DNA of 11,834 bases from Promethearchaeota archaeon (GCA_048938295.1 JBHLMI010000046.1:1-11834), one strand, 5' to 3'; counted from the first letter of the stretch, positions 1-11,834 are shown. The notes: generated by a model not told the origin, from the sequence alone. Numbers and translations are program-made.

Positions 1-864
1 CTTTACTTGACGATTAAACTCGGTAAAGAAACCGTCGACCTTCTAATGGATCGCGCACCGTCGGATTTGACCGTTCCTATCCGGCAGGCGATTGAACAAA
101 TCGATGGCATCAAAGAGTGTAGCCGAATCCGACTGCGAAAAGCCGGACCAATGACCTTCGTCGATATTGTATGCCATGCCGAGCCAGCTATTCCCCTCCA
201 CACTGCACATGAGATTAGCGTCAATGCCCGAAAAACCGCAGAACAAATCATAGGTCGTGCCGATGTCGTCGTCCATATGGACCTCGTCTCAAAGCAGCAT
301 CCACACTTGGGTCAAACCATTCGAAAAGAAACGAAGAACTTCCCTTGGATCAAAGACCTCCAGGGCATCGACAGCTTCGAAACAGACGAGTACATCACCC
401 TTGTGTTAGAACTCCAGATTGACCCACAAATGAGACTCGACGAAGCCCATCACCTCGTTTCAAAATTTGAAACCCATATCCAATCACAATACCCTTTCAT
501 CAAAGAAATCACCACCCACCTTGAACCCAGCCGCGCTCCCACACCAACCACTCACGATCCTAAAACCATCGAAACCCAAATCATTGCACTCGTACACAAA
601 AGCCCACAACTACACAATTGCCATGACATCCAACTGATCCCCCTCTCAGAGAACCTCTACAACCTTACCTTCCACTGTGAAGCACCTCCAAGTTTCACAG
701 TCGAAGAACTCCACGCCGCAACCACCCTCCTCGAAGACGAAATCCGCGAACAACTCCCAATCTTCTCACAAATCATCATTCACAACGAACCACTAAAACG
801 CAAAACGAAGACCAAAAAGGATCAAAAAGAGAAGGAGATTCCTCCCAAAAAAACGAATACCTAA
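1..864 (+). CDS. Cation diffusion facilitator (FieF/CDF) family transporter, C-terminal part with three tandem ZT_dimer-like domains; 5' end outside the window
   Basis: Frame is open from base 1. End of the last TM helix (LYLTIKLGKETVDLLMD) is followed by three repeats of the CDF cytoplasmic pattern (R.RKAG..FVD...H..AH; LDEAHHLV...THLEP; LHNCHDI...IIIHNEP). The last 22 aa are a K-rich tail encoded by an actin relic. Confidence 0.85.
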   Translation, partial: LYLTIKLGKETVDLLMDRAPSDLTVPIRQAIEQIDGIKECSRIRLRKAGPMTFVDIVCHAEPAIPLHTAHEISVNARKTAEQIIGRADVVVHMDLVSKQHPHLGQTIRKETKNFPWIKDLQGIDSFETDEYITLVLELQIDPQMRLDEAHHLVSKFETHIQSQYPFIKEITTHLEPSRAPTPTTHDPKTIETQIIALVHKSPQLHNCHDIQLIPLSENLYNLTFHCEAPPSFTVEELHAATTLLEDEIREQLPIFSQIIIHNEPLKRKTKTKKDQKEKEIPPKKTNT

Positions 865-920
865 ATGCAGTGATGGATCACTCTAGCTCCTCACTCCATG
901 TCCTTATTTTTTAGTTACCT
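824..920 (-). repeat. Actin 3'-end relic R1 (strongly decayed)
   Basis: aaaaagagaaggagattcctcccaaaaaaacgaatac is followed by cta aat gca gtg atg gat cac tct agc tcc tca ctc cat. The minus strand reads M-E-*-G-A-R-V-I-H-H-C-I-* versus actin [12 protein letters not shown]. One hairpin arm (cctccc) and the spacer are retained, and agt tac (T,V) sits at 913-918. Confidence 0.7.
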
Positions 921-967
921 ACGTAAATCTGAAAGGTTAAAGAGGAAGCTTCCACCATTACCCACAA

Positions 968-1945
968 ATGCGGGTTTTATTAACCGGAGCCTTTGGAAAT
1001 ATCGGGGAAAGTACCCTATTAGCTCTATTTGAACAGAGCCATAAGATACGCTGCTTTGATTTACTCACAGCACAAAATGAGAAAACTGCCAAGAGACTGC
1101 TTAAGTATGGCGATTTTGACACTGTTTGGGGTGATGTTCGCGATGTCGACACCACTAGGAAGATCGTTGAGAACGTCGAATGTATCATCCATTTGGCGGC
1201 AATTCTTCCCCCTGTAAGCGAACGAGACGCTGAATTTACCAATGCCGTGAATGTTGGCGGCACAGCGCGGCTAATCGAAGCCGCAGAAACATTATCGGTA
1301 AAACCCAAATTCGTCTATGCTAGCTCCATATCAATATTTGGACCCACAATGCATCTTCCTCCACCAAGGACCGCGGAGGATCCCCTTAGTCCAACCGACG
1401 TCTATACCACCACGAAGGTCAAATGTGAAACGGCGCTCCGGGCGAGTACCCTTCCCTGGACCATCTTACGTTTGGCAGCTGTCCCTCCCATACGCATCGG
1501 TGGCGACATCGACCCGATGTTATTCGAAATGCCCCTTGACCAACGAATCGAATTTGTCCACACCCGCGATGTCGGCACAGCCTTTGCTAACGCTGTAACA
1601 GCCGACACCACGGGCAAGGTGCTCCTAATTGGAGGCGGGAAATCCAGTCAGATGCATCAACGCGAATTCATCGCCAAACCCCTTAACGCCATGGGAGTCG
1701 GAATGCTCCCTGAATCTGCCTTCCGCGTCGCCACGAAGCCTGAAGAGTGGTATTATACCGATTGGCTGGACACCACCGAATCCCAACACCTCTTGCAATA
1801 CCAAAACCACACCTTCGACGAATACGTCGACGACCTCAAAGACGCCATCGGATTCAAACGCTACTTCGCACGACTCTTCCGAGGTTTCGCCCAAAAACGC
1901 CTCCTCGCCCAATCACCCTACTACCAAGAACCGAAGAATTCCTAA
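968..1945 (+). CDS. NAD-dependent epimerase/dehydratase (extended SDR) family protein
   Basis: N-terminal Rossmann motif VLLTGAFGNIG, IIHLAA, NVGGT, YASSISIFG and catalytic YxxxK (YTTTK). Confidence 0.92.
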   Translation: MRVLLTGAFGNIGESTLLALFEQSHKIRCFDLLTAQNEKTAKRLLKYGDFDTVWGDVRDVDTTRKIVENVECIIHLAAILPPVSERDAEFTNAVNVGGTARLIEAAETLSVKPKFVYASSISIFGPTMHLPPPRTAEDPLSPTDVYTTTKVKCETALRASTLPWTILRLAAVPPIRIGGDIDPMLFEMPLDQRIEFVHTRDVGTAFANAVTADTTGKVLLIGGGKSSQMHQREFIAKPLNAMGVGMLPESAFRVATKPEEWYYTDWLDTTESQHLLQYQNHTFDEYVDDLKDAIGFKRYFARLFRGFAQKRLLAQSPYYQEPKNS

Positions 1946-2039
1946 ATAGGATTCCACTCACCATCCTAGGCTAAGCTTATCTGTACAACAAGAAGTATCA
2001 TGAAAGTCAGTAATGAATGGGATTACTCATTTCTGAAGG

Positions 2040-2750
2040 ATGGATAAGGTGACGCGTTGGTCACAACAAGAAATCAGCCAGTTAGCACCGATTTTAATGC
2101 AGATGGAGCAAGATCTGTACCCTCTTAACGAAAAACAAATTTGTGTTCTCTGTAGTGGATTTGGAGAACTCGTGTTTCGTCTGGATAAAAAAATGAGGCA
2201 AAAAGGAAAAATTATCGGACTTGAACGCAGCAGAAAAGCATTACAGCAAGCCAAAACCTTTGCAGCACAAAATCAATTTCGTGCTCAAAGTTCCTTTCAA
2301 TTAATAACTAAGAATAAACTCCCTTATGCGAACCACACCTTCGATGCCCTCGTCAGTGAATTTATTATCTATCCAACGCCACTTCCAACCGAAATTGGCC
2401 AGTTGGAGATGGCTCGCGTAGTAAAACCAGGTGGAACAATCCTTCTCACTGATGTTTTACGAACACACCCCATGTCTAAAAAGGAGACCCAGGCTCTCAA
2501 GCACATCGATATTCACTATCTTTGTGACGCTACATTTTCAGATTTTCAAACCTGGATGACAGCCGCAGGCCTCACTAACATTACAATTCGTGATTTTACA
2601 CCTTTATTGCAAACGATTTGGAGCCAACGGGCGGCAAAAAACACAGATAAGACCCACCGAGTGGGGTACAACCTCCTCCTTCACGATAACAAACTAAAAT
2701 TAGGTGAAGGCATTTTCTATATTTACGCCAAAGGCAATACACCCCCATAG
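2040..2750 (+). CDS. Class I SAM-dependent methyltransferase (Methyltransf_11/UbiE-like)
   Basis: Degenerate motif I (VLCSGFGEL), acidic post-I (IIGLE), LPYANHTFDALVSE, EMARVVKPGGTILLTD. Confidence 0.85.
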   Translation: MDKVTRWSQQEISQLAPILMQMEQDLYPLNEKQICVLCSGFGELVFRLDKKMRQKGKIIGLERSRKALQQAKTFAAQNQFRAQSSFQLITKNKLPYANHTFDALVSEFIIYPTPLPTEIGQLEMARVVKPGGTILLTDVLRTHPMSKKETQALKHIDIHYLCDATFSDFQTWMTAAGLTNITIRDFTPLLQTIWSQRAAKNTDKTHRVGYNLLLHDNKLKLGEGIFYIYAKGNTPP

Positions 2751-2808
2751 CCATCCGGTTTAATTCATAAGGTGAAACAGAATAGTATTGTATAGAGAGG
2801 CTGGGTTT

Positions 2809-3069
2809 ATGTCCGAACAAAGCATGAAAACACCCATTGGAAAAGTCACCAACTATTACTCAAAAATCAATGTAGCCGTCATCGAATTATCCGCCCCTTT
2901 GAAACAAGGTGACGAAATCGCCATCAAAGGCGCAACGACGGAGTTCACACAAACCGTGGAATCCATGCAAATCGAACGCAAAAACATTGAATCCTCACAA
3001 GCGGGTCAAGCCATCGGATTAAAAGTCAAAGAGCGAGTCCGAATAGGCGATACCGTCTACCGCATTTAG
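2809..3069 (+). CDS. Small translation-elongation-factor-like protein (EF-Tu domain II-like / U32 peptidase C-terminal-like beta-barrel)
   Basis: IGKVTNYYSKINVAVIELSAPLKQGDEIAIKG...VESMQIERKNIESSQAGQAIGLKV..RVRIGDTVY. ATG 2809 is preferred over the TTG at 2788. Confidence 0.8.
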   Translation: MSEQSMKTPIGKVTNYYSKINVAVIELSAPLKQGDEIAIKGATTEFTQTVESMQIERKNIESSQAGQAIGLKVKERVRIGDTVYRI

Positions 3070-3110
3070 TAAAACTAGCCCCCTGAGTTTCTAATCACAC
3101 CACTCAACCA

Positions 3111-3166
3111 AACAAAAAAAAGGAGGCCACGCGCCCCACCTGAAAACCGCGATGAAAGACAGTAGC
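3111..3166 (-). repeat. Actin 3'-end relic R2 (barely recognisable)
   Basis: A-tract plus ggagg half-hairpin, then ctg aaa acc gcg atg aaa gac agt agc. The minus strand reads A-T-V-F-H-R-G-F-Q versus actin A-G-V-I-H-R-C-F-* (5/9 identical). It occupies the expected intergenic position. Confidence 0.45.
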
Positions 3167-3232
3167 TCTGAGTGAATCTTTCTCTGCACGCTTGAAATTA
3201 ATAAAAACCCATACTAAAAAGAAGAGGCTGCA

Positions 3233-3988
3233 ATGATGTCTCAACGTGCCTTGGTACGTGAACCCGGAGCTCAATTTACTCACTGCATTTCTTCACACCC
3301 ATTACATCATACCGTCAATGTTGCTCGAGCACGAACACAACATTCAGAATACGTTAACATGTTAACTGAACTGGGGCTTGAAGTCATTCAGTTGCCTCGT
3401 GACGATACTTACCCAGATTCTTGTTTTGTTGAAGATACCGCTGTTATCCATTCTGGTAAAGCCCTCATAACCCGCCTTACCAAGCAGAGTCGTCGAGGCG
3501 AAGAAGATTCAGTTGAGGAACTACTTCAAGAGTATTTACCTGTGCAGCGCATCATGGCTCCAGGCACCCTCGAGGGAGGAGATGTGATTCGGTTACCCAC
3601 CCGAATAATCTGCGGGATTAGCCAGCGTACAAATCGTGCTGGCATGGAACAGATGCAGACTTATTTTGGCGTGCCTGTCGATACCATTACTGATCCACAC
3701 CTCATTCACCTGAAAAGTCATGTAACCTACCTGAACCATAACATCATGCTCACCACTCAGACCTACACACACCACCCAATCCTAGCTGACTTCGAAGTCC
3801 TCGTCGTCCCCGAAAACGAGCAATACGCAGCCAACACTCTCACCATCGACGACACCGTGATCATGCTTACCGGATACCCGCAAACCCAACAACTTATCAA
3901 AGACACAGGTTTCGAAGTTATCAGCCTAAATATAAGCGAAATCACCAAATGCGACGGCGCCCTAACCTGCCTATCACTCCTATTCTGA
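3233..3988 (+). CDS. Dimethylarginine dimethylaminohydrolase / amidinotransferase family protein
   Basis: PDSCFVED, LEGGDV, HLKS and C-terminal GALTCLS (catalytic Cys) motifs. Confidence 0.92.
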   Translation: MMSQRALVREPGAQFTHCISSHPLHHTVNVARARTQHSEYVNMLTELGLEVIQLPRDDTYPDSCFVEDTAVIHSGKALITRLTKQSRRGEEDSVEELLQEYLPVQRIMAPGTLEGGDVIRLPTRIICGISQRTNRAGMEQMQTYFGVPVDTITDPHLIHLKSHVTYLNHNIMLTTQTYTHHPILADFEVLVVPENEQYAANTLTIDDTVIMLTGYPQTQQLIKDTGFEVISLNISEITKCDGALTCLSLLF

Positions 3989-4014
3989 GCCGTTCGCATT
4001 CACACAGATAAACT

Positions 4015-4114
4015 AGAGAAAAAAGGGAGGATACGCCGCCCAAAAAAACGGTTACCGTAGAAGCCGCGAGGGATTACTCCAGCACCCTACTCCATACGCT
4101 CAATGCCGTAACCT
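4015..4114 (-). repeat. Actin 3'-end relic R3 (decayed)
   Basis: A-tract, imperfect hairpin gggagg-atacg-ccgccc, spacer aaaaaaacggttacc, then gta gaa gcc gcg agg gat tac tcc agc acc cta ctc cat. The minus strand reads M-E-*-G-A-G-V-I-P-R-G-F; cgt aac (T,V) sits at 4107-4112. Confidence 0.8.
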
Positions 4115-4180
4115 ACTAGGAATCTTCAAACACTCACTATTGGTTACAGCAAAAAGTTGACTGTGTTGATGTTATTAAAC

Positions 4181-4197
4181 ATTCAATTTGAATATAA
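4181..4197. promoter_or_regulatory. Inverted repeat ATTCAA-T-TTGAAT overlapping a TATA-like AATATAA upstream of acr3; candidate repressor operator/promoter
   Basis: Perfect 6-1-6 palindrome at 4181-4193, about 80 bp upstream of the ATG at 4271. Function is inferred. Confidence 0.35.
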
Positions 4198-4270
4198 GAC
4201 CAAAGAGTTGATATTTTCTTCTAATTCGGATAACCGTACTCGACTAGAATTCAAATACGGAATTAAAGCA

Positions 4271-5317
4271 ATGTCAAATAACAATGAAGCACCAGTTGTA
4301 ATGGGGCTTTTTGAGAAATATCTAACTTTTTGGATTCTTTCTTTTATGGCTCTAGGTTTGCTCGTTGGATGGCTCTTCCCCACATTCGCTATCACATTAG
4401 CTAGCCTGCAATTTGCAGGATTTTCAATTCCTATTGCGATTTGCCTTTTTTTCATGATGTTTCCAACCCTCATCAACATTGAGTACCGTGAAATCAAGTA
4501 CGCCGTGAAATATCCAAAACCCCTCATTATCACACTCGTAGCTAACTGGATAGTGAATCCCATCCTCGGTTTTGTGCTCGCCAGCACCATACTTGCAGCT
4601 AACCCACAATACGTATTCGGAATTATTCTACTTGCAGTATCACCGTGCACCGCAATGGTCCTCTTTTGGAATAAGTACGCCAAGGGCAACATCAATCTCG
4701 GATTGGTAATCACTTCCATTAACTCCATTCTCATCCTGTTCCTTTATGCACCCCTTGCCTCCTTCTTTATTGGCCTCTATGTTCCCGTACCCTTCATTAC
4801 TCTCCTAGTTGGCACTATGTTCTTCCTCGTCCTCCCCCTAATAACCGGGATTCTCACCAAACGTTATATCTACAAAACAAAAGGTCAAGAATGGTTTGCC
4901 AGATCCTTCAAGCCCATTCTTGACAAAATTGCCATCTTTGCTCTCCTTCTCACACTCGTCGTTCTCTTTTCCTTCCAAGGCCAAGTCATCCTCACCCAAC
5001 CGCTGAATGTCCTCTGGATCAGCAGTGTTCTCTTACTAAACTATGTTATCATGTTCACCTCCGTGTTTGTCATCTGCTACAAACTCGGATTTACCTACAA
5101 ACAAACCGTCACCGTCACAATCATCTCCAGCAGCTCACATTTTGAAATCGCCATAGCCACCGCCATCCTCCTCTTTGGCCCAGGATCCGCCGCCGCATTC
5201 GCCACCGTCATCGGCGTCCTCTGGGAAGTTCCACTCATGGTCGCCTTCATCAAACTCGCCCTCAGACTACAACCAAAGCTTTGGAAACCCCCAGCATCAA
5301 GTCCTCCGAACCCCTAA
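4271..5317 (+). CDS. acr3: ACR3 family arsenite efflux transporter
   Basis: FEKYLTFWI, IPIAICLFFMMFP, LVANW, GIILLAVSPCTAMVLFW, SSSHFEIAIATA, IGVLWEVPLM. ATG 4271 is preferred because the ORF-track extension from 4157 is not protein-like. Confidence 0.93.
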   Translation: MSNNNEAPVVMGLFEKYLTFWILSFMALGLLVGWLFPTFAITLASLQFAGFSIPIAICLFFMMFPTLINIEYREIKYAVKYPKPLIITLVANWIVNPILGFVLASTILAANPQYVFGIILLAVSPCTAMVLFWNKYAKGNINLGLVITSINSILILFLYAPLASFFIGLYVPVPFITLLVGTMFFLVLPLITGILTKRYIYKTKGQEWFARSFKPILDKIAIFALLLTLVVLFSFQGQVILTQPLNVLWISSVLLLNYVIMFTSVFVICYKLGFTYKQTVTVTIISSSSHFEIAIATAILLFGPGSAAAFATVIGVLWEVPLMVAFIKLALRLQPKLWKPPASSPPNP

Positions 5318-5333
5318 TCCCATTCACCCAACT

Positions 5334-5373
5334 AAAAAAAGAGAAAGGGGAGGCCAAGCCTCCCAAAGTTACT
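5334..5373 (-). terminator. Actin-type terminator: left (terminator/spacer) half of split relic R4, now terminating the 5369-5686 gene
   Basis: aaaaaaagagaaaggggaggccaagcctcccaaagttactt matches the actin A-tract, hairpin and spacer (gttactt versus gctactt in R6) but no actin codons follow. Confidence 0.8.
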
Positions 5374-5686
5374 TGAGGTCACTCACATCAATACCCGGTC
5401 GGAGTAATCGAATACTGATATCATCGAGAAGCCCGGAAGAAATGGCCATCATTTTTTGCACGTCCGCATTTCCATAGAACTTTGCGAACTTCTCCATGCT
5501 CTCAAAGGGGATCCAATACATGATTCGCCCAGTATTGTCCGCCCAAAACGTTACGTCAGGACTAATCAATCCCTTTTTCAGCCATTCCTCTGTTTTCCCA
5601 CCCAGCTTCTCTTGCCAATCTAACAGTTGTTTCCCTCGAACCTCATCCTTAGGTGTACGATACTCAACACACAAGACGCATTTCAA
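5369..5686 (-). CDS. Hypothetical protein (~105 aa)
   Basis: Open frame. A perfect Shine-Dalgarno GGAGGTGA (plus strand tcacctcc, 5692-5699) lies 5 nt before a TTG at 5686, giving MKCVLCVEYRTPKDE... The stop lies inside the relic spacer. Confidence 0.7.
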   Translation of the reverse strand: MKCVLCVEYRTPKDEVRGKQLLDWQEKLGGKTEEWLKKGLISPDVTFWADNTGRIMYWIPFESMEKFAKFYGNADVQKMMAISSGLLDDISIRLLRPGIDVSDLK

Positions 5687-5882
5687 TGATCTCACCTCCA
5701 TTCCAGTAACCATCGAAGTGAAAAAGCCCATGCAGGTAGAGTAACTGATGCCATTCGGCCCTCCAAAGGCTAGCCACCCTTATGACAAATATAGTATTTA
5801 TATCCGAGGTTTTACGAATTTCCACCCGACAAAAACCCAGAGGCTGCAGAAGTCAGGCCACAGCATTTCCTTAACACAACCA

Positions 5883-5937
5883 CTAGGGAAGCACCGATGA
5901 ATCACATCAGCACTCTGCCCCATGTATCATGTAACCC
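5883..5937 (-). repeat. Right (coding) half of split actin relic R4
   Basis: cta gg gaa gca ccg atg aat cac atc agc act ctg ccc cat gta ... tgt aac cc. The minus strand reads Y-M-G-Q-S-A-D-V-I-H-R-C-F. No hairpin is adjacent. Confidence 0.8.
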
Positions 5938-5996
5938 TCGTTGACCTGCGTAATTTTATATCCACCAAGTGTGTAGAACACCTGAGGAAGAGCAGA

Positions 5997-6443
5997 ATGG
6001 CCACAGCAGGTTATGCCCGATATGAAATCGAAGGTCACATCGAAGAAGTCATCAATGTTTTGGAGCCACAATTTGGCGACTCCTTCACCCGAACCTATGA
6101 ACATAATGGACGATGCGTCCTTGCCATCCTCCTCACCGATCAATACGCATTTCTAACCAACAGCCACGTTGCTGTCACAATCATCCTTCGAACCCACGAT
6201 TACCTAGTCATCATGGACGTCATCGGCTACGGCGGTAGCAGCGGATTGATAGGCCTCGACTGGGGAAGCAACAAAAGCATCGTCCACGACGTTCACAGAC
6301 ACCTAACTAAACATGGCTTCAAAATCACTCGCACCCAGTTCACCGAACTCTCCAAACACCATGACCATCGCATAAAACAGTACCCACGAACCGAACCCAT
6401 CCTCGCAAATGACCCAGACTACTTCGAACCGCCAATCGATTAG
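5997..6443 (+). CDS. Hypothetical protein, DUF6054-like
   Basis: The segment VAVTIIL...MDVIGYGGSSGLIGLDWGSNKSIV recalls the GG..G.F..DWGAE motif of DUF6054 (from memory, not searched). The start may be ATG 5997 or ATG 5922, which lies inside relic R4. Confidence 0.6.
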   Translation: MATAGYARYEIEGHIEEVINVLEPQFGDSFTRTYEHNGRCVLAILLTDQYAFLTNSHVAVTIILRTHDYLVIMDVIGYGGSSGLIGLDWGSNKSIVHDVHRHLTKHGFKITRTQFTELSKHHDHRIKQYPRTEPILANDPDYFEPPID

Positions 6444-6551
6444 CAAAATGGTAAATCGTCGAGAATATTCAATAGACCCAAAATTACCATTAGCACAGAA
6501 ACATGCTCGACTCAGAAAAAAAGCAGAACAATTCAAACAAAAAAGAACGCG

Positions 6552-6658
6552 AAAAAAGAATGAAAGGGGAGGCAAGCCTCCCAAAAAAATCGACTACTTT
6601 AGAAGCACCGATGAATAACATCAGCACCCTAGTCCAGGTATTCTTTCTTCGTAACCCA
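6552..6658 (-). repeat. Actin 3'-end relic R5 (type A UTR, internal nonsense codon)
   Basis: A-tract, perfect hairpin gggagg-caag-cctccc, stop at 6599-6601. The minus strand reads W-V-T-K-K-E-Y-L-D-*-G-A-D-V-I-H-R-C-F-*. Confidence 0.95.
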
Positions 6659-6744
6659 CTTCACTGTCGTATTTATCTACGGAAGTTGTTGAGTTTAGAC
6701 CACCAACTAAGCATAGTACCTCACCAAGAATTGTTGGAGCTAAA

Positions 6745-7203
6745 TCAGTGAGAACGAACAAAGGGAACATAATCAGTCATAGGCACTTCTCTCCCTAACG
6801 TCCGTAATGCCAAGACTAACTGTCCACGATGGTAGGTCGCATGATTTACCAAATGAAACACAAACTCCACCACCGATATTGAACGCCCCTGCCCTACCTC
6901 CACAACACCCTCAGAACCCAACTTCTTAAAATATCGCCTCCATCGCTGCTGCATCTCCTCAACCACACCAATAATCATGTTCACACTCATCGCAGAAAAC
7001 TCCGGTTCGTCCCAATCCTCACCGGACACATCCACCAACCACTCCCAATAATCATAGGCCAAATGGACACAAATATCACGGATACTCCGCGAATAAGCGC
7101 CCAACGGAGCAACACACTCCTCCTCCGAAACCTCAACCACCACACCAAAAACCACCTTGTCAGCCCAACTCAAGTATTCAAACAGTCGATCTACACACTC
7201 CAT
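6745..7203 (-). CDS. DinB/YfiT-like family protein
   Basis: SIRDICVHL and HLVNHATYHRGQ His triad, LRTLGREVPMTDY C-terminus. ATG 7203 is preceded by GGGTGGT. Confidence 0.88.
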   Translation of the reverse strand: MECVDRLFEYLSWADKVVFGVVVEVSEEECVAPLGAYSRSIRDICVHLAYDYWEWLVDVSGEDWDEPEFSAMSVNMIIGVVEEMQQRWRRYFKKLGSEGVVEVGQGRSISVVEFVFHLVNHATYHRGQLVLALRTLGREVPMTDYVPFVRSH

Positions 7204-7279
7204 AGACTTACCACCCAAACATCAAACCAATACAACCACCTACCACCCACAATAAATAAAAAATCAGGCTAAACCCCTA

Positions 7280-7387
7280 GAAAAGAGAAAAAAGGGAGGA
7301 CAAGCCTCCCAAAAATTCGGCTACTTAGAAGCAGCGATGAATTACGCCAGCACCCTGCTCCTTGTACTCCTTTTTGGTCACCCACAA
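7280..7387 (-). repeat. Actin 3'-end relic R6 (type A UTR, intact reading frame)
   Basis: A-tract, hairpin gggagg-acaag-cctccc, stop at 7325-7327. The minus strand reads [20 protein letters not shown], with 9 synonymous and 2 non-synonymous codon differences from actin. Confidence 0.97.
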
Positions 7388-7394
7388 CCATTTT

Positions 7395-8180
7395 TTAGGA
7401 AATCCGTTTGAGGAAATCTAAAACCACGGTATAAAATAGCTCACATCGTTTGTCTACATAATTCATGTGTGTCATATCGGGGATGATGGCTAATTCTGCC
7501 TGGGGTATCAAGCTAAGCATTTCGATCTGAGTTTCAAGGGGAACCGCTTCATCTTTATCCCCCACAATGAGGAGCGTAGGCACCTCAATCTTTGTAATAT
7601 CGTCCTGCGGATAGTTCGATGGATCCCTCCACATTTGAAGCTGCTTGTTAACGAAGATTTCCAAATACTCAGACCCGTAGACGTGACTATGCACAGCCCT
7701 CAAAGTCTTCTTAAGTTCTGGTTGGGAGTCAAGCCATTGGGGAACTGACAAAAGACCCTCCCGCGTCTTTTGTGTCAATTCATGCATTCCCCCACCCACA
7801 ACGAGGGCCGTAATGAAGTGAGGATACCGGATACCAATTTCTAACGCTATTTGCCCGCCATCACTCCAGCCACCGATAATCGGATTCACCAGATCTAAAG
7901 CCTTGGCTAACGCCACAACATCATCGGCCATGACTCGATAATTCATTAAGTCCTGGGGATTATCCGTGCGACCACACCCTCGACAATCCGGAGTAATTAC
8001 GCGAAAATGCTCTGCGAATCGCTTCCTAAGATCCCCCCACCCCAGACTCCCTGTAAGCAACCCACCATGGACCAGAATCAACGGAATCCCCTTGCCCCGA
8101 TCCTCATAATACATACGAAGCCCATTCGCATCCACATAGTGCCCAAACTCAGGTAACACCTTCAGCTCATCGTTCTTCAT
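7395..8180 (-). CDS. Alpha/beta fold hydrolase
   Basis: VHGG oxyanion motif, PDCRGCGRT, nucleophile elbow GWSDGG, GDKDE acid, THM His. SD-like GAGGTG before the ATG. Confidence 0.92.
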   Translation of the reverse strand: MKNDELKVLPEFGHYVDANGLRMYYEDRGKGIPLILVHGGLLTGSLGWGDLRKRFAEHFRVITPDCRGCGRTDNPQDLMNYRVMADDVVALAKALDLVNPIIGGWSDGGQIALEIGIRYPHFITALVVGGGMHELTQKTREGLLSVPQWLDSQPELKKTLRAVHSHVYGSEYLEIFVNKQLQMWRDPSNYPQDDITKIEVPTLLIVGDKDEAVPLETQIEMLSLIPQAELAIIPDMTHMNYVDKRCELFYTVVLDFLKRIS

Positions 8181-8321
8181 GTCAACACCTCGTAACCATT
8201 AAAGATCCCAGCCACTAAAAGGTTAGCCAGTAAGCCACCCAATAGATCCTTCTCTACCACTCAAACTTAGGCACATGAAACTAAGGGAAAAAGCAGAATA
8301 AATCGCACAACAAAGAGAACG

Positions 8322-8422
8322 AAAAAAAGAGAAAGAGGGGGAGGCACAGCCTCCCAATAATTGAAGACCGTTTAGAAGCAGCGATGAATAACACCAGCGC
8401 CCTGTTCCATGTATACTTTTTT
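8322..8422 (-). repeat. Actin 3'-end relic R7 (type B UTR)
   Basis: A-tract, hairpin gggaggc-aca-gcctccc, spacer aataattgaagaccgt, stop at 8372-8374. The minus strand reads [16 protein letters not shown]. Confidence 0.97.
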
Positions 8423-8590
8423 ACAAACCGAGTATATGCTTGAGATCATCACGGCACTTTTCGTTTAGCGAGAATGCCTAGCCTCTCCAGAATGTAATTA
8501 ACAGGCCTAGCTCTATGGCCTCCAGTAGTTTTCTTAGAGAATAATTGAGAAGATTAATAATCCACGTTCTCAACTCTATCTGTGATTGAA

Positions 8591-8878
8591 ATGACTCTCA
8601 AAACAAAACAGGCGAAACCAGCTCCAAGCAGCCCTGCCACTGCCATTATCCTAATTGAAGTCTTACCCAAAGAACATCTCAACGTCTTACATATCGTTAA
8701 ACAAGACCTTGAAAAAATTGAAGGCGTCAAAGATGTGTGCGGTATTTTTGGCACCTGGGACCTATCAGCCATCATCGAAGAAGAGACTTATGAATCCCTC
8801 AAAAACAAAGTCATCGACGAGGTACGCGCCGTGCCTGGCGTTGGCAAAACTGAAACGCTCCTCCGATTTCCACTCTAA
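8591..8878 (+). CDS. Lrp/AsnC ligand-binding (RAM) domain protein, no HTH
   Basis: TAIILIEV.P...LEKIEGVKDVCGIFGTWDLSAIIE...VIDEVRAVPGVGKTETL. Start is ATG 8591 (GTG 8582 is an alternative). Confidence 0.88.
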   Translation: MTLKTKQAKPAPSSPATAIILIEVLPKEHLNVLHIVKQDLEKIEGVKDVCGIFGTWDLSAIIEEETYESLKNKVIDEVRAVPGVGKTETLLRFPL

Positions 8879-8967
8879 CATTGACTCAAAACAGCGAAAT
8901 ACTATCCTTAAGGATGACTTCAACAACCATCAATAGAAGAACTATGCAGTGAATGAAAACATCCATT

Positions 8968-9063
8968 AGAAAAAAGAAAAAGGGGAGGCACAGCCTCCCA
9001 ATAGGTGAAGACCGTTTAGAAGCACCGGTGATTAACGCCAGCGCCCTGCTCCATATTTTTCTT
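8968..9063 (-). repeat. Actin 3'-end relic R8 (type B UTR)
   Basis: A-tract, hairpin gggaggc-aca-gcctccc, spacer aataggtgaagaccgt, stop at 9016-9018. The minus strand reads M-E-Q-G-A-G-V-N-H-R-C-F-*, with an apparent 3-nt deletion in the preceding codons. Confidence 0.95.
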
Positions 9064-9142
9064 CCCGCTTACACCAATGGATTATTATAAGAAATTAAAG
9101 AGCAAATGTTGCTATGAATCCCAGAATGGTTGGTGAAACCCA

Positions 9143-9538
9143 ATGAAGCAAAGTGCAGGAAGAATCACTCGTCTTTGGCTCGGTATGGTCGAAGTCTCGG
9201 ATCTAGACAAAGCCCTCCAATTTTACCATGAGGTTCTTGGCCTACCCATAGCACTCGACGCAAGAATGTTTGATCACGCCGAAGTTGGCCCCGAAGAACC
9301 GTTAGCAAAAATCGGCCTATATGCTAGTGGTAAAAAAGCAGAGAAAATACGCCGAACAGGCATTGTCTTGGATACCGATGACATCAACGCCCTATACAAT
9401 AGACTAACCCGACACGGAGTAAAATTTACCACAAAGCCGACTAAGATGCCATGGGGCGGCATATCCGCAAAATTCCTCGACCCCGACAACAACGAATTCG
9501 AGGTCGTGCAAGACCCCCACCATTACTCACGAAAATAA
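9143..9538 (+). CDS. VOC family (glyoxalase/bleomycin resistance) protein
   Basis: VSDLDKALQFYHEVLGL, IVLDTDDINALY..L...GVKF...P..MPWGG....FLDPDNNEFEV. Confidence 0.93.
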   Translation: MKQSAGRITRLWLGMVEVSDLDKALQFYHEVLGLPIALDARMFDHAEVGPEEPLAKIGLYASGKKAEKIRRTGIVLDTDDINALYNRLTRHGVKFTTKPTKMPWGGISAKFLDPDNNEFEVVQDPHHYSRK

Positions 9539-9553
9539 AACACCAACAACACC

Positions 9554-9657
9554 AAAAAAAGAGAAAGAGGGGGAGGCACAGCCTACCAATAAGTGAAGAC
9601 CGTCTAGAAGCAGCGGTGGATCACGCTAGCGCCCCGTTCCATGTATTCTTTCTTTGT
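9554..9657 (-). repeat. Actin 3'-end relic R9 (type B UTR), nearest to actin
   Basis: A-tract, hairpin with one mismatch (gcctacc), spacer aataagtgaagaccgt, TAG stop at 9604-9606. The minus strand reads T-K-K-E-Y-M-E-R-G-A-S-V-I-H-R-C-F-*. Confidence 0.97.
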
Positions 9658-9839
9658 AGCTACTGGTCAACTGGTGTTTGGTTTTAATCACCTTTTCCAG
9701 AGAACCATAACGCATAAAAGTAAACCAAATTCGGCGCTCCGCCAGAGGTGACCCCATCATAAAAATCGATTATGAAAAACTATCAACCTACCTCACCGAA
9801 GACGAACTAGATCAACTCGATGCCGCAACGTATCATGTC

Positions 9840-10202
9840 ATGCGCTTCAAATGGCTCGCCGACGACTGCACCACCTGGGACGACATAATCCACGCCCTGC
9901 ACCACCGAATCACCGCCATTGAAGACCTCAAAGCCCAAGGCGCAATCTTAGCCCAAAACAACAACGACGACTACATCTTCTATGAAATCCCCGGCGAAAC
10001 CGCCATCTTCGCCACCCTCACCACCCTCACTGACACTGAGTGCACCTTCCAACTCGACGATGGTGCCACCATCACCACCCCACGACCCGACTGGACCGAC
10101 TTCACACACGACCACCTCCACTGCCGCCTTGTCCTCCTCATCACCGAAACCGGCGAACTCAACGGCGTCTCCCTTCCCCACCACGTCCCGAGCGACCCAT
10201 AA
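9840..10202 (+). CDS. Hypothetical protein, translationally coupled to the downstream endonuclease gene
   Basis: 120-aa ORF whose stop overlaps the next ATG (TAATG, 10200-10204). The frame stays open upstream to 9711 with a protein-like sequence (KIDYEKLSTYLTEDELDQLD). Confidence 0.7.
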   Translation: MRFKWLADDCTTWDDIIHALHHRITAIEDLKAQGAILAQNNNDDYIFYEIPGETAIFATLTTLTDTECTFQLDDGATITTPRPDWTDFTHDHLHCRLVLLITETGELNGVSLPHHVPSDP

Positions 10203-11335
10203 TGATCACCGGCACACCCTACTTTCCTAAAAAATGTCCAACTTGTCCGATTTACCGCCTTCGCCAAACTACCCAGCCTGGCACTAAAGCCACCTATCAA
10301 CGCAAATTTGACATCACAACCGAACTCCAAATCGTCTGCGACTACACCTGCAAAGAAAAAAGCAGCCTCCAACTTGCGCAAGAAAAAGACTGCACCCAAG
10401 ACACCATCCAAAACATCGTCCGCAGATTCAATAAACCCCTCCGCTCTTTCCGCGACGCCCAACTCCTCCGCCGCGGATCCAAAGACCTCACCTTCCCCCT
10501 CTCACCCGAAGTCCCCCAGCTCCTCCAACACCCTAAGGTAAAGCCCTTTCTACCGCAATTAATAGCTGTCATGCTCCTCACCGACGGTGTCGCCGGCTAC
10601 CGCCAAGGTCACCGCCCTTACCTTACCTTCACCAATAAAGCGGAAACCCTCCACGCCATCTTCGCCGACCTCATCCACTTCCACTACAACCAACCCCCAT
10701 CCGCCTACTTCAAAAAATACTGGAGCAGAGCAAAGAAACAAGGTTCCTGTGCCTTCTACACTACCTATAACCGCATAGCCGACACACATCCCATCCTTAA
10801 CGAACTCCTTACACTCAGCCCCACATATCGGACACAACCCAAACTCGGACAATCATGGGAAAACTACCTCCAGCAAACCCCACAACCCACACTCCAATTC
10901 TTATCAAACCCAACCATACCTACACAAATTCACAACTTCGTAATCCAACTAGGCATGAGCGCCGAAGGTTCCATTAGCCCCATCTTTGTGTCAGATAGTC
11001 GATTCCCTTATCCACATCTAACATTGGGCTGCAAACATCCATTACTCAAAGAACAATGGAAAACATATCTCGAAATCCAAGGCTTTTCATTCAACAAAAC
11101 CACCGAAATGATTGAAACCGCACAACTCCAGCAAGCGAAGAAATTCCTCAATCTTGGTGGTTTTTTCAACGGTGTAAAAGTGAAAGCTGGCAGTTATTAT
11201 GAAGGACTCGACAAACAAGCCGTCTTAAAAGCAATACTCATTGACAGAAAAACCCATCCAATCGACCCAGCACTTCTAAAACAGGAAAAACATAAAATCT
11301 TACGCCAACGAGCATTACAATTCAAAAAATCCTAA
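10202..11335 (+). CDS. Free-standing double-motif LAGLIDADG (homing/intein-type) endonuclease-like protein with N-terminal CxxC and HTH
   Basis: Motif 1 LIAVMLLTDG (10559-10588) and motif 2 VIQLGMSAEG (10940-10969) both keep the acidic residue. HTH-like IVCDYTCKEKSSLQLAQEKDCTQDTIQNIVRRFNKPLRS and CPTC lie upstream. Start is set at ATG 10202 (377 aa) by the TAATG coupling. Confidence 0.75.
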   Translation: MITGTPYFPKKCPTCPIYRLRQTTQPGTKATYQRKFDITTELQIVCDYTCKEKSSLQLAQEKDCTQDTIQNIVRRFNKPLRSFRDAQLLRRGSKDLTFPLSPEVPQLLQHPKVKPFLPQLIAVMLLTDGVAGYRQGHRPYLTFTNKAETLHAIFADLIHFHYNQPPSAYFKKYWSRAKKQGSCAFYTTYNRIADTHPILNELLTLSPTYRTQPKLGQSWENYLQQTPQPTLQFLSNPTIPTQIHNFVIQLGMSAEGSISPIFVSDSRFPYPHLTLGCKHPLLKEQWKTYLEIQGFSFNKTTEMIETAQLQQAKKFLNLGGFFNGVKVKAGSYYEGLDKQAVLKAILIDRKTHPIDPALLKQEKHKILRQRALQFKKS

Positions 11336-11350
11336 TCTCCACTCACACGA

Positions 11351-11399
11351 AATAAAAAAAATGAAAAAGGGGAGGCAAGCCTCCCAAAAATCAGCTACC
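11351..11399 (-). terminator. Actin 3' UTR and terminator: hairpin GGGAGG-CUUG-CCUCCC followed by U-tracts (type A UTR)
   Basis: Plus strand gggagg caag cctccc at 11370-11385, flanked by A-runs at 11351-11368 (U-tract on the minus strand), 14 nt after the actin stop. Confidence 0.85.
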
Positions 11400-11834
11400 T
11401 TAGAAGCACCGATGAATAACACCAGCGCCCTGTTCCATGTATTCTTTCTTTGTCACCCACATTCGCTGAAACGTCTTTAGAGAGGCTAGGATGCTGCCGC
11501 CGATCCAGACGGAGTACATGCGTTCGGGTGGGGCGACGATTTTGACTTCGACGTTTTCGGGGATGGATTCGATGATTTCTTTGCGGAGGCGTTCTTTGAG
11601 TCCGGGGAACATGGTGGTGCCGCCGGAGAGGACGATGTTCGCGTAGAGGTCGCGGCGGAGGTCGACGTCGCATTTGTGGACGGCTTCGACGATGGCGTCG
11701 TCGAGGGGTTGGGCTTCGATGCCGATGGCGCCGGGGTTGAATAGGACTTCGGGTCCCTGGAAGCGTTCGGCGCCGACGGTGAGGGTGGAGCCGTCGGGGA
11801 GCATGTATTTCTTTTCCATGCCGGCGACTTTTTC
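11400..11834 (-). CDS. Eukaryote-like actin (Asgard/lokiactin-like), C-terminal ~145 codons; 5' part outside the window
   Basis: [67 protein letters not shown], terminal HRCF. High GC with C-ending codons is consistent with high expression. The prokaryotic gene neighbourhood argues for an archaeon. Confidence 0.95.

Follow-up and report, generated by a model that had tools for sequence, protein, structure and literature searches.

A gene-cassette array bounded by relics of the actin 3' end at the actin locus of Hermodarchaeota archaea

The window, by which we mean the whole stretch of DNA analyzed, is the entire contig C18 (11,834 bp) of genome G000, from a Hermodarchaeota (Asgard) archaeon. 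It ends inside an actin gene, and behind this gene lies a gene-cassette array in which copies of the actin 3' end alternate with accessory (cargo) genes; our analysis confirmed that this array is real. The array arose by repeated insertion of DNA segments at one defined site at the actin 3' end, with the oldest units most distal. The original prediction, made from the window alone, had proposed such insertion, and it is upheld by the confinement of the copies to one locus, their variable cassette content, a third-position bias in their codons and their common 5' limit. The gene in the first slot next to actin, here called F2, is predicted to encode a LAGLIDADG protein. We give a probability of about one-half to the reading in which F2 drove accretion of the array by break repair of the homing type, with additional deletions between the displaced tails (relics). 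As a way of collecting genes, the array looks undescribed: full-text searches of PubMed Central and bioRxiv for Asgard actin in connection with integrons, LAGLIDADG proteins or integration hotspots brought up nothing of the kind, in line with what had been supposed.

To locate copies of the actin tail, we ran a covariance model, itself derived from 40 copies, over the window with filters off; find_repeats and MAFFT were used as well. The model gave 11 minus-strand matches, corresponding to the working tail and 10 co-oriented relics, and no noteworthy match on the plus strand of the window. The same copies were visible by repeat finding and in the MAFFT alignment. The site consists of a coding tail of ∼60 nucleotides (nt; the last ∼20 codons), the stop codon, a short spacer, a palindromic hairpin (GGGAGGC-loop-GCCTCCC in the working tail) and a T-tract, which is on the actin strand, opposite to most cargo genes. 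All of the ∼9 relic positions that had been predicted were recovered, including a weak one near 3140 and a split one. Going away from actin, the tail sites and F2 sequences of the window are as follows, with A and B denoting types of spacer, that is, of the actin 3' untranslated region (UTR).

11400-11834, minus strand: 3' part of the actin gene, Asgard type, of which translation gives the last 144 codons, ending ...GAGVIHRCF and stop; cut by the contig end.
11342-11464, minus strand: working tail site with the last ∼21 codons, TAA at 11400-11402, type-A spacer, hairpin and T-tract (covariance model, 123 bits).
10202-11335, plus strand: F2, 377 amino acids (aa), with an N-terminal Cys4/helix-turn-helix (HTH) region and a predicted double LAGLIDADG fold; convergent with actin.
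9544-9668, minus strand: relic, type-B spacer, its stop now TAG (113 bits).
8956-9080, minus strand: relic, type-B spacer (109 bits).
8312-8436, minus strand: relic, type-B spacer (122 bits).
8233-8382, plus strand: F2 remnant (clade B, last ∼50 codons) abutting the relic (tblastn, 72% identity to P0012 residues 345-393, E 1.7e-12).
7267-7389, minus strand: relic, type-A spacer, peptide intact but for one residue (121 bits).
6539-6663, minus strand: relic, type-A spacer (111 bits).
6448-6570, plus strand: second, weaker F2 3' remnant abutting the relic (tblastn E 6e-9; nhmmer E 9e-6).
5887-5943, minus strand: coding half of the split relic (31 bits).
5321-5367, minus strand: hairpin and T-tract half of the split relic (28 bits).
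3998-4120, minus strand: decayed relic that has lost its stop (75 bits).
3094-3198, minus strand: strongly decayed relic, left out of model building (14.5 bits, E 0.0018).
803-925, minus strand: decayed relic (79 bits).

BLASTN of the tail against all 66 contigs of the genome found copies in this contig only, and the covariance model added one relic on contig C11 (12787-12859), which agrees with the predicted clustering at a single locus. The last 77 nt of C11 (13561-13637) are identical to positions 1-77 of the window. The two contigs therefore join, and the array continues leftward, extending at least 14.7 kb from actin when C11 is counted. The hairpin palindrome (GGGAGGY, 1 to 6 nt, RCCTCCC) occurs 6 times in the 2.52-Mb genome, always on C18 or C11, and is thus not a general terminator motif of the genome. 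An isolated hairpin palindrome is found at position 10685 of C11.

The original prediction had named an assembly chimera of several strains' actin loci as the outcome that would undo it. Such an artifact could be suspected from a short contig of a metagenome-assembled genome that ends inside actin, from the breaking of Logan contigs at repeats and from the co-occurrence of related strains in the same samples. However, a second assembly at NCBI (GCA_048941715.1) contains the same array in a 69-kb contig, 99.86% identical and collinear over 11,633 bp, with ordinary genes flanking the array on both sides; there, actin is complete and its 380-aa product matches PF00022 (Actin). Logan contigs from three samples of one study covered the whole window at even depth. 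Moreover, the copies are 60 to 87% alike (they differ by 13 to 40%) and therefore are not collapsed strain variants, and comparable arrays were found in 11 species and several unrelated metagenome projects. We thus give the chimera next to no weight. The loose ends in the Logan contigs derive from related strains with other UTR types. A skip joint from 9751 to 10382 (one contig, with a 30-nt side) and two joints between relics most likely stem from co-occurring relatives. Contigs from the same sediment also join the actin stop (window 11400) to a type-B spacer and the tail core (window 11440) to a cargo flank known from genome G005, so these samples contain more than one species or strain of the genus, with arrays that differ.

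The sequences of the relics record their history. Over the last 11 codons of 34 relics, the minority-base fraction was 0.078, 0.064 and 0.31 at codon positions 1, 2 and 3, compared to 0, 0 and 0.24 in working tails (n = 6). From this third-position bias, most of the relic divergence arose under selection for the actin peptide, and the codon pattern argues that the relics once served as working tails or else received their sequence from such tails by conversion. Across 42 relics, identity to actin was at chance (0.24 to 0.27) up to the M codon of the M-W-V-T stretch (ATG TGG GTG ACA) and then exceeded 0.7 within ∼12 nt; none of the 42 extended farther upstream. Random duplication would not be expected to yield this single shared limit. 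In addition, the relic score fell the farther a relic ranked from actin (Spearman rho −0.52 when pooled, p 2e-4, and −0.79 for G000), and relics gained stops and lost the hairpin.

This polar decay bears on the idea that the copies are kept for a function in cargo genes or actin, for example, termination or the templating of antisense RNA directed at the end of the actin mRNA (3'). Such a function would fit the hairpin and T-tract found where most convergent cargo genes end, as well as a repeat core that is better conserved than the edges. It does not fit the decay of relics away from actin, with stops gained and the hairpin lost, nor a T-tract lying on the actin strand and not on that of most cargo genes; furthermore, the variation tracks the codon structure of actin and not an RNA structure. 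We consider a functional role of the repeats very improbable.

We then asked which parts of a relic travel with which cargo. Pairs of relics with only the upstream cargo in common were more alike at positions 1-24 (0.79, the background being 0.61), an excess that did not extend to the spacer or hairpin, whereas pairs with only the downstream cargo in common were more alike in the spacer and hairpin. Relics are therefore chimeric, their 5' part going with the upstream cargo and their spacer and hairpin with the downstream cargo. This measure, allele sharing per segment, replaced the ends of BLAST blocks between arrays, which we dropped as crossover markers because their pile-up at the stop codon is confounded by the difference in spacer types. 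At two recent cassette indels (G000 versus G012 and G000 versus G001), the junction was located between the spacer and the hairpin stem.

The intervals between tail sites hold the cargo. In agreement with what had been predicted, most of them (8 of 10) contain one accessory gene; the others are 925-3094, with three genes, and 9668-11342, with two. Units measure 0.4 to 3.7 kb. Capture of single genes thus describes most units but is too narrow as a rule, since some cassettes contain 2 to 5 genes. Cargo orientation is mixed in the window (3 genes on the minus strand, 9 on the plus strand) and also in genome G014. The genes of the window other than actin and F2 are the following.

9840-10202, plus strand: 120-aa open reading frame (ORF) of no known family, its stop overlapping the F2 start (ATGA).
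9143-9538, plus strand: glyoxalase/bleomycin-resistance family.
8582-8878, plus strand: AsnC/Lrp ligand-binding domain protein.
7395-8180, minus strand: alpha/beta hydrolase.
6745-7218, minus strand: DinB family.
5922-6443, plus strand: DUF6054-like, slightly below the Pfam cutoff.
5369-5731, minus strand: 120-aa ORF between the halves of the split relic.
4157-5317, plus strand: SBF (bile acid/arsenite-type) symporter.
3233-3988, plus strand: DDAH/amidinotransferase-like.
968-3069, plus strand: three-gene cargo with an NAD-dependent epimerase, an S-adenosylmethionine (SAM) methyltransferase and a 93-aa ORF.
1-864, plus strand: 3' part of a cation-efflux (CDF) gene that starts on C11.

The 120-aa ORF at 9840-10202 also accompanies F2 in G014 and G012, and G012 has a split relic with a 120-aa ORF between its halves in the same arrangement as the window.

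Arrays were found in 11 of the 14 species genomes of the same GTDB genus, with several copies each (up to 17) that were always clustered and co-oriented. Thirteen metagenome contigs of the Joint Genome Institute (JGI), from several projects, also carried arrays, and in G011, with its longer contig L046, more than 20 relics span more than 30 kb. The four genomes of the sister genus showed a working tail at most and no array; their tail and hairpin are the same as those of the array genus. A conserved ancestral flank at the distal side (gene families f20-f21-f22-f12) lies ∼10 kb from actin in G010, ∼20 kb in G000 and more than 35 kb in G011, and one gene of this flank sits close to actin in the array-less sister genus. 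As the distance to the flank varies among species, the whole variable block is an insertion hotspot.

Many cargo genes are common to several species, with 67 to 93% DNA identity, at different places and with different neighbors. In G012, the order is actin, F2, glyoxalase, DinB, whereas in the window the AsnC and hydrolase genes intervene between glyoxalase and DinB; in G005, DinB comes after the first relic. Hence, content and order vary among relatives as predicted, and an identical order in all of them does not hold. A three-gene cassette recurs in several species (L031:10809-13460; L036 and L038) and consists of a double-HTH regulator of the AsnC/MarR type and two ORFs of ∼300 and ∼150 aa that belong to no known family; its regulator family is the commonest cargo overall. 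Another recurrent cargo gene (L031:9874-10695 in G014; also in the G011 array) encodes a 273-aa protein with a weak Phage_int_SAM_1-like N-terminal domain and DUF4332/helix-hairpin-helix (HhH). A recombinase catalytic domain is absent from this protein, which, judged by its domains, is a predicted DNA-binding protein.

One further actin gene drew our attention. It belongs to an Asgard archaeon of a different class with a complete 1.4-Mb genome (L043:3600-3790, i.e., G019:C1, ∼535,600-535,790); there, ∼35 to 40 nt following ...PPERMYS shift the actin frame, so that the conserved C terminus (...GAGVIHRCF and stop) is read in another frame. A mini-intron, a programmed frameshift and an assembly error are all conceivable causes.

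The first slot behind actin is reserved for F2. Its stop lies 64 nt from the actin stop, the two genes being convergent, and F2 or a pseudogene of it occupied the first slot in 10 of 10 loci with an assembled working tail, with one copy per genome. At G005:C229:5667-6761 (L037), the first-slot F2 is full length but carries an in-frame TAA and is a pseudogene; actin there has a type-B UTR. Neither Pfam searches with F2 nor a PDB sequence profile of the F2 alignment returned a family. In contrast to these sequence-based searches, structure was informative: with an AlphaFold model from 14 homologues (pLDDT, the predicted local distance difference test score, of 84), the top 50 Foldseek matches in the PDB were all LAGLIDADG enzymes or maturases. 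A profile search with F2 collected 310 clusters, the distant members of which match Pfam LAGLIDADG_3 above the cutoff. According to the model, F2 is a single chain with two LAGLIDADG domains of the alpha-beta-beta-alpha-beta-beta-alpha type. The two long helices, 114-128 and 241-255, close with D128-G129 (with E in clade C) and with E255-G256, respectively, the latter being invariant in 14 sequences; the acidic residue closing each LAGLIDADG helix is kept in 14 members. Four cysteines are conserved at the N terminus, which also gives a weak HTH signal. The ratio of nonsynonymous to synonymous divergence (dN/dS) of F2 is 0.15 to 0.29.

Among 301 sampled Asgard genomes, F2 was found in this genus only and, distantly, in one other genus. 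The distant homologues are ∼500 aa long with an N-terminal HTH_3 domain and occur at several loci per genome (G056:C2, C4 and C6; G064; G071; L061-L065). No tail-type repeat array was seen beside these homologues, the three loci of G056 among them.

F2 has been replaced in its slot over time. Within the one genus, three deep F2 clades occupy the same slot; identity is 66 to 80% within clade A, 53 to 65% from A to B and 23 to 27% to clade C, while the actins of species with different F2 clades differ by only ∼2%. Each clade is linked to its own type of actin 3' UTR, and these types diverge immediately past the stop codon. In the window, the working tail is of type A, and the relics going away from actin are of types B, B, B, A and A. 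Truncated F2 3' ends were found beside older relics at 8233-8382 and 6448-6570 of the window and in G004, G005 and L046, and nowhere else. From the displaced remnants and the UTR types together, we conclude that units made of a UTR plus F2 held the first slot and were displaced more than once in one lineage. Between G000 and G014, synonymous divergence (dS) was 0.71 for F2 versus 1.74 for the neighboring, vertically inherited gene f13; this one comparison hints at lateral movement of F2. The broader idea that every relic was once adjoined by F2 was given up as a general rule, with a DNA-level F2 3' remnant at 5 of 97 relic hits (some from duplicate loci).

These exchanges constrain the view that no dedicated enzyme is involved and that, after one tail duplication, homologous recombination, unequal crossing-over, gene conversion and slippage with DNA from related species did the rest. 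Several observations suit it, namely, the cassettes common to species together with chimeric relics, the junction positions scattered over the repeat and the internal deletions between relics, which clearly happen; gene conversion from the working tail could also yield the third-position pattern. However, ∼110 nt at 60 to 87% identity, with exact runs of ∼10 nt, is a poor substrate for homologous recombination, and these processes cannot generate new cassette-plus-tail units. They also leave unexplained both the first-slot rule and the swapping of three F2/UTR modules exactly at the stop codon, and no array has formed in the sister genus even though tail and hairpin are the same there. Unaided recombination therefore seems to us quite improbable as the origin of the array.

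The original prediction had called for a search, upstream of actin and genome-wide, for a tyrosine or serine recombinase. Pfam searches identified no such enzyme, and no transposase, either among ∼50 array ORFs of eight loci or on C11 (13.6 kb), and neither C18 nor C11 had a match to PF00589 (Phage_integrase); the two matches in the genome are on C32 and C33. Those two genes leave room for a site-specific recombinase acting in trans, either a host enzyme of the XerA type or another tyrosine recombinase, that moves small circular cassettes at the tail/hairpin, as integrons or integrative mobile elements exploiting Xer (IMEX) do, with F2 as a selfish passenger. The repeated site is sharply bounded, with a palindrome unique to the locus; the two recent indel junctions fall at the hairpin stem and not in the longer coding homology; and most units are single genes typical of integron cassettes (glyoxalase, DinB, hydrolases). 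On the other hand, no recombinase lies in or beside the ∼20 arrays examined, and the tail/hairpin site pattern had no match in the viral contigs of IMG/VR. Tyrosine-recombinase core sites have an overlap of 6 to 8 bp, more than the 2 to 4 nt that separate the hairpin arms here. Cassette orientation is mixed, and a recombinase in trans leaves unexplained the first-slot rule and the linkage of UTR type to F2 clade. Such an enzyme is, in our estimation, an unlikely builder of the array.

Sequence comparison and the structural model point to F2 as the most likely motor of the array. We favor break repair driven by F2 because it accounts for the first-slot rule, the UTR/F2-clade linkage, the displaced F2 remnants and the chimeric relics, as well as for the former function of the tails, the polar decay and the sharing of cassettes between species. 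In the proposed sequence of events, F2 would cut the tail/hairpin site in a genome that has another F2/UTR type or lacks F2, and a donor array would serve as the repair template. The left end of the break would pair with the donor actin and the right end with any donor relic, so that repair would place a copy of the donor UTR, F2 and at least one cassette before the old tail of the recipient and turn that tail into a chimeric relic. The displaced F2 copy would then decay, and recombination between relics would delete or reshuffle internal cassettes; internal deletions would likewise result if relics were broken and repeats then annealed to each other. This scheme has three evident weak points. 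A trace of F2 is kept at few relics only (the 5 of 97 hits mentioned above), the model leaves the origin of the single cargo genes inside a unit unexplained, and an intact site beside F2 demands a specificity that spares its own copy, which is a hypothetical property. Moreover, F2 could be a WhiA-like DNA-binding protein and not a nuclease.

Taken further, the locus might be an endonuclease-driven platform for gene capture, on which rival F2 lineages with their own UTRs break the site and are copied in with cassettes, thereby stacking arrays of more than 30 kb; we hold this wider view tentatively, at somewhat less than even odds. To our knowledge, no natural system other than the integron, which relies on a tyrosine recombinase, is well understood among those that stack single genes at one site of a chromosome. 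By analogy, the actin array appears integron-like in its overall shape, with small accessory units, a repeated site, a polar age structure and variability between close relatives. If F2 drives the array, break repair alone can build a cassette platform, which would widen the known routes of gene collection in prokaryotes; the locus would represent a new kind of gene-capture platform, a counterpart of integrons that arose independently in archaea, and gene flow in the archaeal relatives of eukaryotes would become directly testable. The relic tails, for their part, preserve earlier 3' ends and UTRs of actin as a dated record.

Chromosomal integrons, built by IntI with attI and attC sites, share with the actin array long runs of mostly single accessory genes, a repeated site of ∼100 nt with a hairpin, newer units at one end, content that varies among relatives and a DNA-acting gene at the insertion end. 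The classes of cargo are also alike (glyoxalase, DinB, hydrolases, regulators). In contrast to integrons, the actin array has no tyrosine recombinase, its resident enzyme having a predicted nuclease fold, and its cassettes are of mixed orientation with no common promoter logic. attC sites are imperfect palindromes of 57 to 141 nt that are conserved in structure and variable in sequence, whereas the actin-array repeat stems from the end of an essential coding sequence and is defined by its conserved sequence, not by structure. We looked for three defining features. An IntI next to the site was absent (no PF00589 in C18 or C11, nor a recombinase by Pfam among the array ORFs of 8 loci); the repeat matched the actin tail codon for codon, with only a 7-bp-arm hairpin, instead of resembling attC; and the cassettes were not co-oriented and promoterless (3 minus versus 9 plus in the window). 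The actin array may thus be functionally somewhat like a chromosomal integron, yet it lacks all three features, and the label "integron-like" in the original prediction does not stand in this strict sense.

The same prediction had likened the array to elements that target the 3' end of a gene and make good the end they displace, such as e14 in icd and the tandem islands at tRNA and tmRNA genes; phage 21, also in icd, is another example. Here too there are direct repeats of the 3' end of the target gene, which is kept intact by the supplied copy, and displaced ends that lie downstream in tandem stacks with the oldest unit distal. The repeats are present and the displaced ends were once functional, so this part of the analogy holds; exchange of whole tails is too simple, since the relics are chimeric. 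The actin-array units also differ in being 0.4 to 3.7 kb long without an integrase of their own, in exceeding 20 in some species and in having a LAGLIDADG gene instead of an integrase at the actin site. Aloposons and other described mobile elements of Asgard archaea, which are giant-gene transposons at tRNA sites, were considered and found to be unrelated.

A comparable homing-endonuclease gene with a C-terminal duplication is that in atp6 of Allomyces. In the mitochondria of Endoconidiophora resinifera, homing-endonuclease genes stand beside partial C-terminal duplications of atp6 and cob (PMC6279837). As in the actin array, a LAGLIDADG (or GIY-YIG) ORF lies in these fungal genes between the gene and a displaced C-terminal copy, a replacement end having been brought in by the endonuclease gene as it invaded. 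The fungal cases comprise one duplication per gene in an organelle, with no cargo and no array, whereas the actin case is iterated many times on an archaeal chromosome and includes accessory genes.

Free-standing homing endonucleases of T-even phages promote intronless homing with co-conversion of flanks, and HO induces the switching of MAT cassettes in yeast. Both systems replace sequence without stacking, tail duplication or a growing array. They resemble the scheme proposed for F2 in that a site-specific break at a conserved gene is repaired from a donor and neighboring DNA is copied along, and HO itself belongs to the LAGLIDADG enzymes and has acquired a DNA-binding domain that binds zinc, an arrangement that F2 appears to share.

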